From the NCBI GenBank assembly GCA_964016885.1, contig OZ024742.1:209064001-209128000 (forward strand): a stretch of DNA of 64,000 nucleotides, read 5' to 3'. A program made the position numbers and the translations under genes. Origin of the DNA: Eledone cirrhosa. Its lineage: Eukaryota. Position 1 is the stretch's first letter; each line of letters opens with the position of its first letter. Shown piece after piece: positions 4,370-54,210 of this stretch. A model generated the notes under the pieces. It searched no databases. It was not told the origin of the DNA and was given only the letters and a program-made list of their open reading frames with translations.

Positions 4370-4566
4370 TCATCCAGATAGTTTTTTTAAAGGAGTCCCT
4401 TTCTTTATATCCATCAGCCAATGACCTCTACCCATCCCAGTCAACACCTTCCCCTACCAACAGAAAATGTATAAACACCACCATAACACATTGACAGTCG
4501 GCTTTCCTGGTGAATTCCTTTGAATGAAACAATTCTAGTCCTGTAGAAGCTATTTGTATATTAAAT
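4370..4566 (+). mobile_element. Old PLE pLTR fragment with degenerate hammerhead motif
   Basis: CTGGTGA-attc-cttt-gaat-GAAA-caattc-TA at ~4507-4538; the flanks recur inverted at 13052-13165. Confidence 0.45.
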
Positions 4567-5140
4567 ATATATATTTCGTTTTTGAATTTGTTTTGCAAGA
4601 TTTCTTATCTGAAAACGTGTGTTGAAACAGATATTGTTATACTTTGGGAGGGTCATGCTGCCTATAAAACACACGCACCTGTTAGTCTTCACTTCAATGT
4701 ATTATAAAAATCCTGTTGGGAGGTTCGTTGGTTCTATAACCGGATGTTTGTTTATATATTGTCAAAGCTTCCGTCACACATTCTGTGACCTCGTCAGTGA
4801 CTAGGTCTTTACTTTGTGTTCCTCCTTTGTTCTGTCCTTCAACATCTTACAATAAATAAACAATTATCCGGTTATTGAACCAAACAACCAACCGGAAATT
4901 TATAATAAATTGAAGTGTAATTCAAAAGGTGCGCGTGTTTGTATATGCAGCATGACCATACGAAGTATATCAATATCTGTTTCAACACACGTTTTCAGAT
5001 AAGAAATCTTTCAAAACAAATTCAAAAACGAAATATATATATATTTGTTTTGTAAGATTTCTTATCTCAAAACGTGTGCTGAAACAGATATTGATATTCT
5101 TTGGGTGGGTCATGCTGCCAATAAAAACACACGCACCTAA
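4567..5140 (-). mobile_element. Fold-back cluster of PLE pLTR fragments (family D-like)
   Basis: 4567-4850 is followed by an inverted copy at 4860-5040 and a direct partial copy at 5040-5140; homologous to 20225-20460 and 23880-24125. Confidence 0.8.
4761..4801 (-). ncRNA. Degenerate minimal hammerhead ribozyme
   Basis: Reverse complement: gtca-CTGACGA-ggtcaca gaatg tgtgac-GGAA-gct-T-tgac; GAAA has mutated to GGAA. Confidence 0.55.
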
Positions 5141-5707
5141 AGTTGGAAACTAATAATAACATTTTGTACTGCCTCTTCGCTTCCACCTTGTTTGGGTTTT
5201 TTTTGTTTACTATTTCAACTATAATATATATATATATATATATATATATATATATATATATTTATTAAATAAATATTTGCTCTACGGTTCTTATATATTT
5301 TATATATATTTATCCTTATCGAGCCCTCTTTGGATTTTAGTCTTCAAATTTATTATTATTATATATATATATATATATATATATATATATATATATATAT
5401 ATATGTGTGTGTGTGTGTGTGTGTGTGTGTGTGGAGAAGAGAAATGGCTGTGTAGTTGCTATTTAAGGTAACTTAAAATGGAGTGGGAATACGAAGAAAG
5501 CAAGAACCGGGGGGGGGGGGTCTAGGATATTTCTACGATTTTAAGACAAAATACCACTTCACCCCAGGGCGTCGATAACTGAATAAGTTATTGGGCAAAC
5601 GAAGGAAGGAGGGAGGGAATGCAAAGGGTAAAAAAGAGAAACAATAACAAAACACCGAAAAAAAACAATATAGCATATATTTTCACTAGCTCTGACAGTT
5701 TGCCAGC

Positions 5708-5769
5708 GAACAGTGGGCTGTACTGATGAAGGGTGATACTCAAAAACATTAGTGTCTGCAGTTCTGTTC
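5708..5769 (+). ncRNA. Hammerhead ribozyme motif, G12 mutated (solo pLTR remnant)
   Basis: ctgta-CTGATGA-agggt gat actc-aAAAA-cattagtg-TC-tgcag; stem I ctgta/tgcag is extended by gaacag/ctgttc; GUC cleavage triplet. Confidence 0.6.
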
Positions 5770-5875
5770 ACATGCTAACACAAGAGTAAGAATGAAGGGT
5801 TCATTCTAATGGCATGGCTATAAAATTTAGGCTTGTTTGTATAATTGCAAACGAATCGAATGTTATTATTAATAT

Positions 5876-6068
5876 GTGGATTGGCAGTATCGGTAGAGGG
5901 TCGGACGCCATGCTTTGACGCATAGAGTTACGTCCTTTGCCATTCTGAGTTCAAATCCCGCCGAGGTTAACTTTGCCTTTCATCCTCACGGGGTCGATGA
6001 AATAAAGTACCAGTAACGCACTGGGTAATTGCTGGCCTTGTGCCAAAAGTAGAAACAATTATTAATAT
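5876..6068 (+). mobile_element. SINE family 1 copy
   Basis: Family consensus; TTATTAATAT on both sides (likely TSD). Confidence 0.9.
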
Positions 6069-50813: not shown

Positions 50814-50845
50814 TGGTCACTTCTAAGTATACTTAGAAGTGACCA
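50814..50845. repeat. Perfect 32-bp palindrome
   Basis: TGGTCACTTCTAAGTA|TACTTAGAAGTGACCA. Confidence 0.9.
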
Positions 50846-51077
50846 GGATACTAATAATTCTTCACCCGCTGATGAATTAGAATTTTGCTATGTCTCTTTT
50901 AATATGTCTCAATTAATATTGCGAAAGAGTATTATCAGATATTTAATTAATATCAGATATTTAATTAATATTGCGAAAGAGTATTATCAGATATTTAATT
51001 TGTTCGAAATCCAACAAATATAGATGTTTACAAACTGATTCAAAACACACGACAGGATTCTGGAGTAAGTATTCAAT

Positions 51078-51715
51078 TGATATTAAGTAAATGGAAACCA
51101 TATTTATGAAACCATATTTTTTCTAATACATATATTTCACGGGTGCCAAAAATGTTGGTACACTATCATCAGATAAAATACAAAATGTTTTATAAATATT
51201 TCACATGACCAAGGATGATATACGTTAATTGTTCAAGTTATCACTGGAGAGTGAAGGGAAGAGAGGAGAAAAGACAGATATTTAAAATTATTAATATGAT
51301 TATGCAAATTATGTGTATATTAAAGGGCTAAAAAACGTTATTTTCTAAAATAGCGTTTTTTTAGCCCATCTTAGCTATGGAAAATTTAAATATTTATGAT
51401 AAGGAAAGAAGAGAAAGAGAAAAGAGAAAGAGAAAAGAGAAAGAGAAAAGAGAAAAGAATAACGTAAATTTGGGGGAAAAGATTTTGTTACCTATATTAT
51501 GAGTTATAAAATTATATGAAGAATTAAGGTTGTAAGTAGTTTTATTTTATTACATTAGGATAGGTTATATGTATATAAATATCTATATATATATTAATAA
51601 GTTGCGTATGCATTGATTGTTTATATAAATAAATATGAGTTACGAATGATGTTGGAAGAAACAATTGTCAGCTATTAAATGATTTGAACACAACTTTGAT
51701 AATTGTCTAAGTTAT
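51078..51715 (-). mobile_element. Solo pLTR related to element A/G pLTRs, with HHR at 51119-51180
   Basis: Collinear similarity to 8363-8960; RC tattttat-CTGATGA-tagtgtaccaa cattt ttggcacccgt-GAAA-tatatg-TA-ttagaaa. Confidence 0.85.
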
Positions 51716-52002
51716 ATATATATATATATATATATATATATATATATATATATATATATATATATATATATATATATATATATATATATATATATATATA
51801 TGTATACATACATATACATTATATATATATATATATATATATATATATATATATATATGTGTGTGTATGTATATATATGCTTTAGTAATATCAAAGATTG
51901 GCCAGTTACAAGTATGAGTATAGGTCGATTTAAAATAACAAGTGTAATACAGAGCCCAAATGCGATGTAAATAATAATCAAAGAGTATTTAATCTTTCAA
52001 AT

Positions 52003-52618
52003 ATTTAATAACTGGTGATGGTTTCATCCTAGCACAAGGCCGGATTCATCGGTGTTAATAACAAAAGTTAAAAACAAATATAAGATCAAAACTTTATCAT
52101 AAGGACGTTTGGAGGATGCATAATATGGGAGGTTATATAAGCACAAGCTTATGGGGAAAAGAATGTTAATATGGCTGAACTGTGTGGTCGAACTTATAGC
52201 CTTGCACCTGTCTGTAATCCATTGCATCAAATATTTTTAATATATTTTATTAAATGCTTAAATCATTTAGCTTTATTTGAAATGCATGTTTTCCTCTGTC
52301 TAGTATTACTAACTTTCTTAGTCTCAATTTTGTCCACTAATATATATGATATATGACTTTCACTGTACTTCATTTAACTGTAACTGCATGTTTATCATTT
52401 TACTTTATTTTATTGCATTTTATCTGCTCCTATTTTTCATGTTTTCCGCCTCAGTAACCTTATATAAATAGTAATGCTTGAGCTTATCTAACCCCTCAAA
52501 TAATGTATACTCCAAATGCTCTTATAACAAAGCTTTAAGCTCCAATTTATGTTTAACTTTTGTTATTAACTCCGATGGGTCCGTCTTTGGGCTTTGATGA
52601 AACGATCATCAGTTATTA
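52003..52618 (+). mobile_element. Old miniature PLE (I) with ~67-bp inverted ends carrying degenerate HHRs
   Basis: 52003-52071 = RC of 52551-52618; consensus taac(t)-CCGATGA-atcc..ggat-GAAA-cgatca-TC-agtta; TATATAAA at ~52460. Confidence 0.65.
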
Positions 52619-54210
52619 ACGGCGTTGGGATGGCAGGCCTTGAGTACTTTGCGCTCGAGGCTGTCCATGTACCAGATCACTAGCAAACCCGACAAGCTTG
52701 AGCCCATGCGTAACCCTGAGGTCTGCCGGTGTTGTCAACGACGAAGGATAGGAGCTGACAGATGTCAGTGGGGGAGAGTCTGAAGCAGTGTTGGTTGGTA
52801 GATTGAACACGTTCTATAAGTATATCGACAGCCGGGAGCGCCATATAAGTATATCGACAGCAAACATACCGGCAGAGCTCAGAGCTGCCCATGGGCTCAA
52901 GTCATTCGGGTGTACTAGCGATCGCGTACATGGATAGCCTCGAGCGCAAGGCACTCAACGCCTGCAACTCCAACGCCGTCACCTTCTTCTCAGGATAAGT
53001 GGACAACATACTCATCCTCACATCTTCCTAGATGGCGAACGGTTCAGCAACACGGACGACAATATTGACTTCAGTGTTGAACACCCCAACGACGACGGTT
53101 CCCTTGCCCTCCTTGACTACCGAATCAACATCACGGCGCAAGGAGGGATCCACACCAGCTTCTACCGCAAGGCAGCCTACAGGGACTTGTTCGTCCACTA
53201 CAAATCTAACAGTGCTAAAAGAGGGTACATCACGAACTAGATCACGCGGATTAAAAACAGATGCAGTGTTCCCGTGAATGGTGTCACCCATACCAAGCGG
53301 TTCCTAAGGGTGCTGGAGAGGAACGGATATCCAGCCTCGCTTACAAGCAGAGTAAGAGACACCACACGCAAGAGGCAGAGAAACACCCAAGGCAAGTGCT
53401 TTCTTAAAATCCCGCACCTGGGCGAGAAAACCACCAATGCTATCCGCAGGACCATACGGAGGGAGGGCCTCGACATCCTCTTGGCCCACTTGGGCCACTC
53501 CCTACGGAGATGCCTCTCGCGGAAACCCGGGAAATTGGTTGACGCGTGTTCCCTCGGCAACTCTCCCATGCGCCAAACGAACTGTTACTTACGCACGTAC
53601 GTTGTATACAAGGTAGAATGTGACAAGTCCAACGACTACTATATCGGTAGAACAATCCGAGCACTACATATCCAGATCAAGGAGCACATCAACACCAGGG
53701 CCTCGTCATTCCCGAAACGCATAACTAAATGCGGAAACAAAGACAGAAGGCCCGTTGTCACGGTGCTAGCGACAGTACACAACGTCAGCACTTTAAGAAT
53801 CAACGAAGCACTTTGCATCAAACGCCTAGGACCACAAATAAATTACCGATCCGAGAGAAGCGAGACGAAATGGCTGGTATAAACAAACGAAACAACAACA
53901 ACACACACACACACACACACACACAGTGGCATTCGAACGATTGTTATTGTGTGTGTAGCGAATCCACCATCCACCGACCAACAAACAACAATCACGCAGA
54001 CTAACAACACTGCCAGTATTAAAAGACCTTTGCTTGACCGCAACTATTCCACGCGCACGCGCGCCCTACAGAATATCTCAGTTGTACACAAACGGCAGAC
54101 AACAGAGGTTACGTGCCGTTCCTCTCCGACTAAAAACTTTCCCCCTCGGAAAAACCCCCAGTTGATGGATGCGAAATCCGAAATATAGGGACAATTAAAT
54201 CACTTCCAAG
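52619..54210 (+). mobile_element. Penelope-like element J (Poseidon-like) with an inverted RT segment at its 5' end
   Basis: LPMGSSHSGVLAIAYMDSLE...*VDNILI; ORF 53274-53882 VVYKVECDK..YYIGRTIRALHIQIKEH...LRINEALCIKRLGPQIN; 52619-52830 encodes the same RT region on the minus strand; degenerate HHR at ~54155-54190. Confidence 0.88.

Follow-up and report, generated by a model that had tools for sequence, protein, structure and literature searches.

Hammerhead Motifs and Penelope-Like Elements in the Window

The window analyzed here is a 64,000-nt stretch of the 3.0-Gb genome of Eledone cirrhosa (contig OZ024742.1:209,064,001-209,128,000, assembly GCA_964016885.1). It has a GC content of 35%, is rich in TA/CA microsatellites, and contains eight runs of broken open reading frames (ORFs) of Penelope-like elements and fragments of long interspersed elements (LINEs). 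A sequence-only reading had listed 19 sites in it as hammerhead ribozymes carried by the pseudo-long terminal repeats (pLTRs) of Penelope-like retroelements, which encode a reverse transcriptase (RT) and a GIY-YIG endonuclease. Sites are named by the position of their first box with a strand sign (for example 8464-), all positions are those of the whole window, and hammerhead families carry letters. The features are as follows.

4500-4551 (+): family I hammerhead, copy-specific A6G, weak stems; family box CTGATGA in 30/43
4761-4802 (-): clan B hammerhead, A13G
5718-5761 (+): family K hammerhead, G12 lost; intact relative at locus L120
8409-8473 (-): clan A hammerhead, intact; cut predicted after 8418
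9607-11673 (-): broken Penelope-like RT and GIY-YIG ORF, upstream of the 8464 motif
12709-12773 (+): clan A hammerhead with damaged stem II and palindrome, in the inverted copy (8358-9297 vs. 12824-11875, 91%)
13696-16248 (+): broken Penelope-like RT and GIY-YIG ORF of young family M, Cys-rich linker
16543-16589 (+): family M hammerhead, U3-A8 core (UUGAGAA), palindrome ACGUACGU
17345-18241 (+): family E Penelope-like ORF, 3' fragment
18719-18844 (+): family E hammerhead, 86-nt stem II; single stem I mismatch in the window copy
20372-20416 (-): clan B hammerhead, intact
20677-20990 (-): GIY-YIG fragment, upstream of the 20411 motif
23916-23960 (+): clan B hammerhead, intact, inverted copy (93%)
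29467-29524 (-): family C hammerhead with intact boxes; the window copy has a disrupted stem III pair
30514-30571 (+): family C hammerhead, inverted copy, C3A and U16.1A
30824-32551 (-): family J element, inverted partial copy; hammerhead deleted (76 nt)
32454-34031 (+): family J broken Penelope-like RT and GIY-YIG ORF
36090-36128 (+): family L hammerhead, intact, palindrome AGUACU
37523-37610 (+): family J scaffold, box CCGUCGA (U4C and A6U) at family level, 61-nt stem II; window copy also U16.1A
38913-39000 (+): family G hammerhead, 59-nt stem II; GAAA to GUAA in the window copy
40675-41785 (+): broken Penelope-like RT and GIY-YIG ORF, no hammerhead assigned to it
43698-43737 (+): family O hammerhead, U3-A8, decayed
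46850-46890 (-): family N hammerhead, GAAA box lost by a 7-nt deletion; ends approximate
47620-47687 (-): clan A hammerhead, intact
49158-49490 (-): GIY-YIG remnant between 803-bp inverted repeats
50166-50233 (+): clan A hammerhead, intact, inverted copy (99.4%)
51119-51180 (-): clan A hammerhead with intact boxes and a disrupted first pair in stem I
52009-52057 (-): family D hammerhead, box CCGAUGA (U4C, the family's commonest); window copy also U16.1C
52567-52615 (+): family D hammerhead, inverted copy, CCGAUGG
53241-53882 (+): family H Penelope-like GIY-YIG ORF end
54155-54190 (+): family H scaffold, box CAGUUGA (U4A and A6U) at family level, rest in place

Census of the Sites and Chance Controls

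Intact motifs were defined by a strict type I descriptor: exact CUGANGA, GAAA and UH boxes, at least 4/5 stem I pairs, one stem III pair, and a stem II hairpin of -1 kcal/mol or lower closing within 2 nt of the boxes. This energy-based descriptor replaced an earlier rigid one, which was dropped because it lost real copies with an unpaired closing position. The 13 listed sites that fail it were compared with other genomic copies of their own repeats. All 19 coordinates lie on a hammerhead scaffold or within ~60 nt of one, and every one of the 19 belongs to a repeat family that is spread through the genome and has a minimal type I scaffold, each tested family having 490-3543 first-look candidates in the genome.

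The motifs at the listed sites are real: the scaffold is present at 19/19, matches in shuffled DNA are near zero, and stem II covaries. The strict descriptor is passed by 6/19, three per strand (8464-, 20411-, 23921+, 36095+, 47678-, and 50175+). Four more keep their boxes but are damaged in a stem relative to their family (12718+, 18728+, 29520-, and 51172-), and the complete box set is kept in 10/19. Copy-specific core changes are found in five sites: 4507+ (A6G), 4797- (A13G), 5723+ (G12A), 30518+ (C3A and U16.1A), and 38918+ (GAAA to GUAA). In the remaining four (37527+, 52052-, 52572+, and 54159+) the first box is non-canonical at the level of the family. Families D, H, and J, which lack the canonical first box, are treated as hammerhead-derived scaffolds and not as canonical members.

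We found three sites beyond the original list: 16551+ (U3-A8), 43703+ (decayed U3-A8), and 46885- (7-nt deletion). The listed sites belong to 11 families, in agreement with the proposed figure of more than 10, and to ~14 insertions only, because five same-family pairs are inverted partial duplicates; with the three extra sites the totals are, by our count, 22 sites, 14 families, and ~17 insertions. The diversity is genuine, but clan A supplies five listed sites and clan B three. Alignment ends bias the comparison of core with flank conservation, from which we took nothing but the box tallies of families other than D, H, and N. Canonical boxes are the family majority in A, B, C, E, G, I, and N, and the U3-A8 form in M and O.

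Sixteen control blocks of 50 kb, pre-set at round positions on 12 contigs, were scanned together with 200 kb of flank. When the window was shuffled locally by dinucleotide 40 times, no strict match appeared, and 80 shuffled blocks of 50 kb contained 2, against 32 in the 16 real control blocks; the motif frequency, named beforehand as one measure that could overturn the motifs, was thus far above that of shuffled DNA. Over 20 blocks the U3-A8 core had 9 matches against 1 in shuffles, the G3-C8 core 1 match, and the A3-U8 core 0. The Rfam scan that had been proposed as a check gave 0 matches to any family in the window at the gathering threshold, and hammerhead was absent among the 150 of 229 rows listed at an E-value threshold. 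Two candidates were rejected. A look-alike first box at 37576 sits within the 61-nt stem II of family J, whose real box CCGUCGA is at 37527, 48 nt upstream, and 37502 is the 5' flank of the same scaffold and not a separate motif.

Stems, Palindromes and Poly(A) Signal

Covariation was assessed in clan A, the only clan examined, with 20 copies (4 from the window and 16 of 20 BLAST matches in control and flank loci; 19 distinct rows), three inverted twins and one shortened copy being left out. Pairing was found in 89.8% of 394 cells, compared with 35-58% in slid controls. Two-sided changes occur in 9/21 pairs overall and in 7/10 in stem II; the rows are related, so these figures do not amount to a probability. 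Covariation across genomic copies, which the sequence-only reading had put forward as a test, was therefore found in this clan.

The short palindromic stem III that had been noted was borne out. Perfect palindromes are present in 17/32 strict control matches, although the descriptor demanded just one pair, and clan B and family E are only near-palindromic. The stem III segments are predicted by folding to form self-duplexes and not monomer hairpins. Stem II reaches 59-86 nt in families E, G, and J. The association with AATAAA also held, the signal lying within 28 nt after the site in 13/32 strict control matches compared with a background of 2.6%.

Position of the Motifs Relative to Penelope-Like ORFs

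As the sequence-only reading had proposed, the motif lies downstream on the sense strand in all 7/7 cases with a linkable Penelope ORF. In families A, B, E, H, J, and M, the motif occupies the pLTR on the sense strand behind an RT and GIY-YIG ORF, separated from it by 0.27-1.6 kb of element sequence. The same arrangement, with a same-strand upstream Penelope ORF, was found elsewhere in the genome at 18/30 loci for E, 18/30 for M, and 5/30 for A. A protein search with the family H endonuclease gave 10,078 candidates genome-wide, and the motif followed within 520 nt at 38/49 of the loci picked by protein (50 picked, one duplicate place dropped). Pfam matches are weak or absent for the broken Penelope ORFs of the window. 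An H copy at L321:1173-3815 (-) retains an uninterrupted 881-aa frame that matches RVT_1 (9e-8) and GIY-YIG (2e-4); its YVDD motif reads YVDY. In family J, a colinear inverted copy (30824-32551) joins the ORF at 32454-34031 to the 37527 motif. Judging by eye from the Cys-rich linker, A, E, J, and M may be Neptune-like.

Family M is the youngest encountered, with 1,432 candidates and 14/40 best copies identical over 141 bp. Its end is covered by contigs of three runs of unknown kind from two organisms, which are uninformative on expression or cleavage.

Two more pLTR copies have the hammerhead excised with both flanks kept: one of family J at 30866-30888 (-), where 76 nt are missing, and one of family I at 13075-13100 (-), where ~36 nt are. 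These excisions look as if the RT had jumped over the folded core. Preferential deletion of the ribozyme was considered and found no support in a small test (3 deletions vs. 237 full copies; control 1 vs. 133), one of the three being apparently a mapping artefact.

Orientation of the Copies

Same-family pairs in the window are inverted in 5/5 cases. Among 190 search loci, 140 carry solo copies, 43 inverted, 5 both, and 2 direct ones; an inverted copy is therefore present at 48/190, and 43/50 multi-copy loci elsewhere are inverted only. TA arrays are found at element ends. An 803-bp inverted pair at 99.4% flanks the GIY-YIG remnant at 49158-49490. Head-to-tail repeats of 150-450 bp, each with a hammerhead, are absent from the window, and direct-only copies occur at 2/190 loci.

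Altered Catalytic Cores

Two families carry box changes that are predicted to cripple cleavage. Boxes of H and J were tallied with positions 4, 6, and 7 left free, the counts being our own over the matches listed. Family H reads CAGTTGA in 77, CTGTTGA in 8, and the canonical box in 2 among 100 listed of 292 matches, and CAGTTGA also in 30/38 protein-picked loci. Family J reads CCGTCGA in 89 and the canonical box in 0 among 100 listed of 621 matches; its relatives have CCGATGA and CTGAGGA, at 83-85% and 78%. Family D reads CCGATGA in 11/24 and CTGATGA in 5/24. A further family has CCGAAGA in 4 identical copies, and CCGTTGA was seen in one more context (1 copy). We had considered that A6U occurs only together with a non-U4; this was ruled out by the CTGTTGA boxes of family H.

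Across 1 Mb of DNA from control blocks and flanks, CCGANGA had 6 matches and CCGTNGA 2, with 0 in each of two shuffles, and changes elsewhere in the core gave 0-3 scattered matches each. Family H retains G8, G12, the C3-G8 pair, the stems, and the palindrome across two subfamilies. The CCGAAGA (U4C) family has identical hammerheads at L091-L095 (C5 block) and L106-L110 (C10 block), three same-strand copies on C5 being 10-13 kb apart.

Density of the Motifs

Control blocks contain 0-6 strict motifs (mean 2.0), one of them equaling the 6 of the window, which lie from 4.3 to 54.3 kb, and the flanks contain 3, 0, 5, and 0. The leave-one-out count, which takes intact and decayed copies together with a library built from control blocks only, is 13 for the window, 0-11 for the controls (mean 4.3), and 7, 6, 8, and 5 for the flanks. 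The window is thus enriched ~threefold over the control mean. Extrapolation gives ~120,000 strict motifs in the genome (bootstrap 75,000-170,000; 16 blocks, not size-weighted). Strict motifs per 50 kb are 2.75 on the smaller, AT-richer contigs C7, C9, C10, C19, and C28 (8 blocks) and 1.25 on the four largest, C1-C4 (8 blocks).

Other Features of the Window

A clan B fold-back around a TA tract forms a long hairpin at 4631-5138, within a family I copy, and a 148-aa open frame with no Pfam match at 4048-4494 (+) continues into the family I pLTR. Another frame without Pfam match, of 281 aa, lies at 41823-42668 (-); by resemblance, it is probably where the Penelope ORF of an inverted copy has its N-terminus. 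The family J element is broken up by the family L hammerhead and by a LINE fragment at 34544-35952 (+) (RVT_1, 4e-15), presumably of the CR1/L2 type. Endonuclease-RT LINE fragments are also present at 56471-57775 (-). A repeat resembling short interspersed elements (SINEs) has at least 8 window copies (2450-2634, 3642-3834, 5772-6092, 19535-20075, 21600-21682, 24779-24962, 54222-54364, and 57047-57240), one of which is inserted directly behind the family H hammerhead. Apart from these elements, no host exon was recognized, as 0/73 further window ORFs match Pfam (73 of 120 candidates; the rest were scanned separately or overlap known elements).

Discussion

We consider it likely that the 22 minimal type I hammerhead motifs of the window come from the pLTRs of ~17 separate Penelope-like insertions, out of an estimated ~10^5 motifs genome-wide, that the scattered, mostly inverted and mostly damaged copies are inert, intact ones being predicted to cut weakly and as dimers only, and that cleavage is probably unneeded for the spread of H and J. 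The metazoan minimal hammerhead is reported to be inactive as a monomer and weak as a dimer (PMC4209133, excerpt). As published work suggests, a pair of same-sense copies in an active tandem element would join by the palindromic stem III and process the element RNA just upstream of its poly(A) signal. After insertion, a 5'-truncated and often inverted copy would stay in TA-rich DNA and then decay, and dispersed copies would lack a partner for cleavage. H and J amplified with both U4 and A6 of the uridine turn changed. Because these two families reached hundreds to thousands of copies in that state, they could probably spread without cutting themselves efficiently. The ribozyme of the Anolis element cleaves in vitro, its catalytic mutants still insert in vitro, and no RNA-seq ends fall at the site (PMC11167929, excerpt); Naiads spread without canonical hammerheads (PMC8557442, excerpt).

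Several observations weigh against parts of this interpretation. Penelope membership of C, D, G, I, K, L, N, and O is judged from their architecture, and in tests with window-derived proteins over ~1.5 kb few or no same-strand upstream ORFs were found for C (0/20), D (2/20), G (1/15), and I (0/15). Family J also scored 0/15 in that test, yet it is linked to an ORF within the window, and shows that long 3' untranslated regions can hide ORFs. Families without a linked ORF show ragged 5' ends and inverted partial copies, which match the published Penelope layout (PMC8557442, excerpt), and they would thus probably belong to the same group. One clan A pair, 51172- and 47678-, lies on the same strand 3.5 kb apart, 51172- being a damaged copy. 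In clan A, two of five shuffle measures are less favorable, as further pair types were not above shuffles (241/500) and pairs with two-sided changes only weakly so (31/500). By leave-one-out count no other of the 21 blocks is as dense as the window, whose flanks (5-8) are also above average; the negative-binomial P is ~0.02, uncorrected for the window having been picked. Bar the known U3-A8 swap, family-level changes hit only positions 4 and 6, with G5, A9, G12-A15.1, the stems, and the palindrome unchanged; this fits both loss of function and continued selection acting on the fold.

The proposal that the motifs could cut any read-through or intronic transcript fares poorly. Such cutting is unlikely because dimers need two same-sense copies and all five pairs are inverted; moreover, 13/19 sites fail the descriptor and no host exon is found among the 73 ORFs. 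An RNA crossing an inverted pair is predicted to form long double-stranded RNA, sense paired with antisense, that would bury the ribozyme, and pairing between two RNA molecules may remain. That the region is a selected hotspot cutting host RNA on both strands is therefore highly improbable, despite its threefold enrichment, its top rank among the 21 blocks, and its six intact motifs divided evenly between the strands. One control block matches its strict count and another reaches a leave-one-out count of 11, and under the fitted distribution ~2% of 50-kb windows, by our arithmetic roughly 1,200, are expected to be as dense. The data argue only weakly for the hotspot label: the enrichment stands, but the density is at the high end of what the whole genome shows as background. 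Moderately rich in Penelope elements and apparently free of exons, the region is not a ribozyme organ, and as a hotspot it is ordinary. At the other extreme, the idea that the motifs are chance matches in AT-rich DNA deserves practically no credence. It could draw on the lack of Rfam matches and on the folding of single copies, 4/10 of which are no better than shuffled sequence (z > -1), and it is refuted by the near-empty shuffles, the clan A covariation, and the fixed position behind Penelope ORFs.

More serious alternatives concern what the families are and whether their cores work. C, D, G, I, K, L, N, and O could be non-autonomous, retrozyme- or SINE-like passengers of Penelope enzymes, as the scarcity of upstream ORFs in the tested C, D, G, and I loci would allow and as the proposed derivation of animal retrozymes from pLTRs (10.64898/2026.07.22.740005, excerpt) would suggest. 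We regard this as rather unlikely, given the lack of head-to-tail arrays, the Penelope-like ragged 5' ends and inverted partial copies, and the concealment of ORFs seen in family J. Somewhat more credible, if still doubtful, is that the U4/A6-changed cores (CAGUUGA, CCGUCGA, and CCGUUGA) are active natural variants whose uridine turn is rebuilt in the dimer or with an element protein. Two separate lineages reached U6 with non-U4, CCGTTGA appears in a third context and U4C in two more families, and H has conserved its catalytic guanosines, pairing, and palindrome; U4C reportedly keeps enough in vivo activity for viroid infectivity (PMC3088659, excerpt). Against this, low activity was found in a type III hammerhead, which is not a dimer, for every mutant, single or double, in the CUGA region other than the C3G/G8C swap, so that pairwise changes were otherwise unrescued (PMC9901934). 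Apparent intermediates (CTGTTGA in H; CCGATGA and CTGAGGA in J relatives) also suggest stepwise drift and not strict co-variation. The wider version of the idea, that Penelope lineages repeatedly swapped U4 and A6 of a uridine turn taken to be invariant while keeping catalytic guanosines, stems, and palindrome, yielding active rebuilt-core hammerheads missed by descriptors and making the ~10^5 motifs a natural mutational series for probing the ribozyme's role in Penelope elements, appears improbable to us. Over active variants we clearly favor the reading that the ribozymes of H and J are likely weak or dead and that both families were amplified anyway.

In kind, the motifs are the known Penelope pLTR hammerhead, and the family-fixed changes of the uridine turn are the newer part. 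They share with the metazoan Penelope minimal hammerheads (PMC4209133, excerpt) the type I topology, the CUGANGA, GAAA, and UH boxes, an extra base after A9, the short palindromic stem III, the location within the pLTR, the presence of many families in one genome, copies that are mostly single or on opposite strands, and the U3-A8 variant, which is known there from schistosome elements. They differ in stem II, of 7-8 bp there and of 59-86 nt here in E, G, and J; in the family-fixed U4C, U4A with A6U, and U4C with A6U, which do not appear in the alignment rows of that excerpt; and in number, ~2,000-9,000 in schistosome, coelacanth, and frog against ~10^5 estimated here, a rough comparison as descriptors differ. 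Poseidon PAc of Anolis likewise carries a pLTR hammerhead in an RT and GIY-YIG element; its core is canonical and cleaves in vitro (PMC11167929, excerpt), whereas two of the present families deviate from that core.

Type I hammerheads at very high animal copy number are also a property of non-LTR retrozymes (PMC7229834; 10.64898/2026.07.22.740005; both excerpts), a coral having >6,000 type I motifs and the axolotl up to 120,000 retrozymes (PMC7229834, excerpt). Retrozymes, however, are described as head-to-tail arrays of 150-450 bp with canonical hammerheads, whereas copies here are solo or inverted and their cores minimal. Among natural core variants, the U3-A8 swap recurs, and A6C and U4C exist with lower activity; "A6U" and "U4A" are absent from the excerpted text of PMC3088659, which likewise does not describe fixed double changes in high-copy retroelements. 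For cephalopods, 235 Rfam hammerhead matches are recorded in the giant squid (PMC6962438), and an octopus repeat annotation describes active Penelope families, with no use of "ribozyme" in the excerpted main text (PMC13282606). Among 20 of 51 literature matches listed, no study of octopus hammerheads was found beyond the squid genome and Naiad papers.

The novelty of the altered cores is provisional. No report of CAGUUGA- or CCGUCGA-type cores was found among the literature matches listed; Lunse et al. 2017, on variant small hammerheads from Penelope elements, and Arkhipova et al. 2017 are outside this coverage and may describe them.

The estimated ~10^5 intact motifs are far above the minimal-hammerhead counts of other animals and the 235 of the squid, although methods differ; Rfam gave 0 in the window. 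What the hammerhead contributes to Penelope transposition is an open question (PMC8557442 and PMC11167929, excerpts). Sister families with canonical, U4C, A6U, and double-changed cores, present in hundreds to thousands of copies in one genome, make this role testable. If the altered cores are dead, the elements can do without cleavage in vivo, and their fold may have some other use; if they are able to cut, the core consensus now accepted is too narrow.

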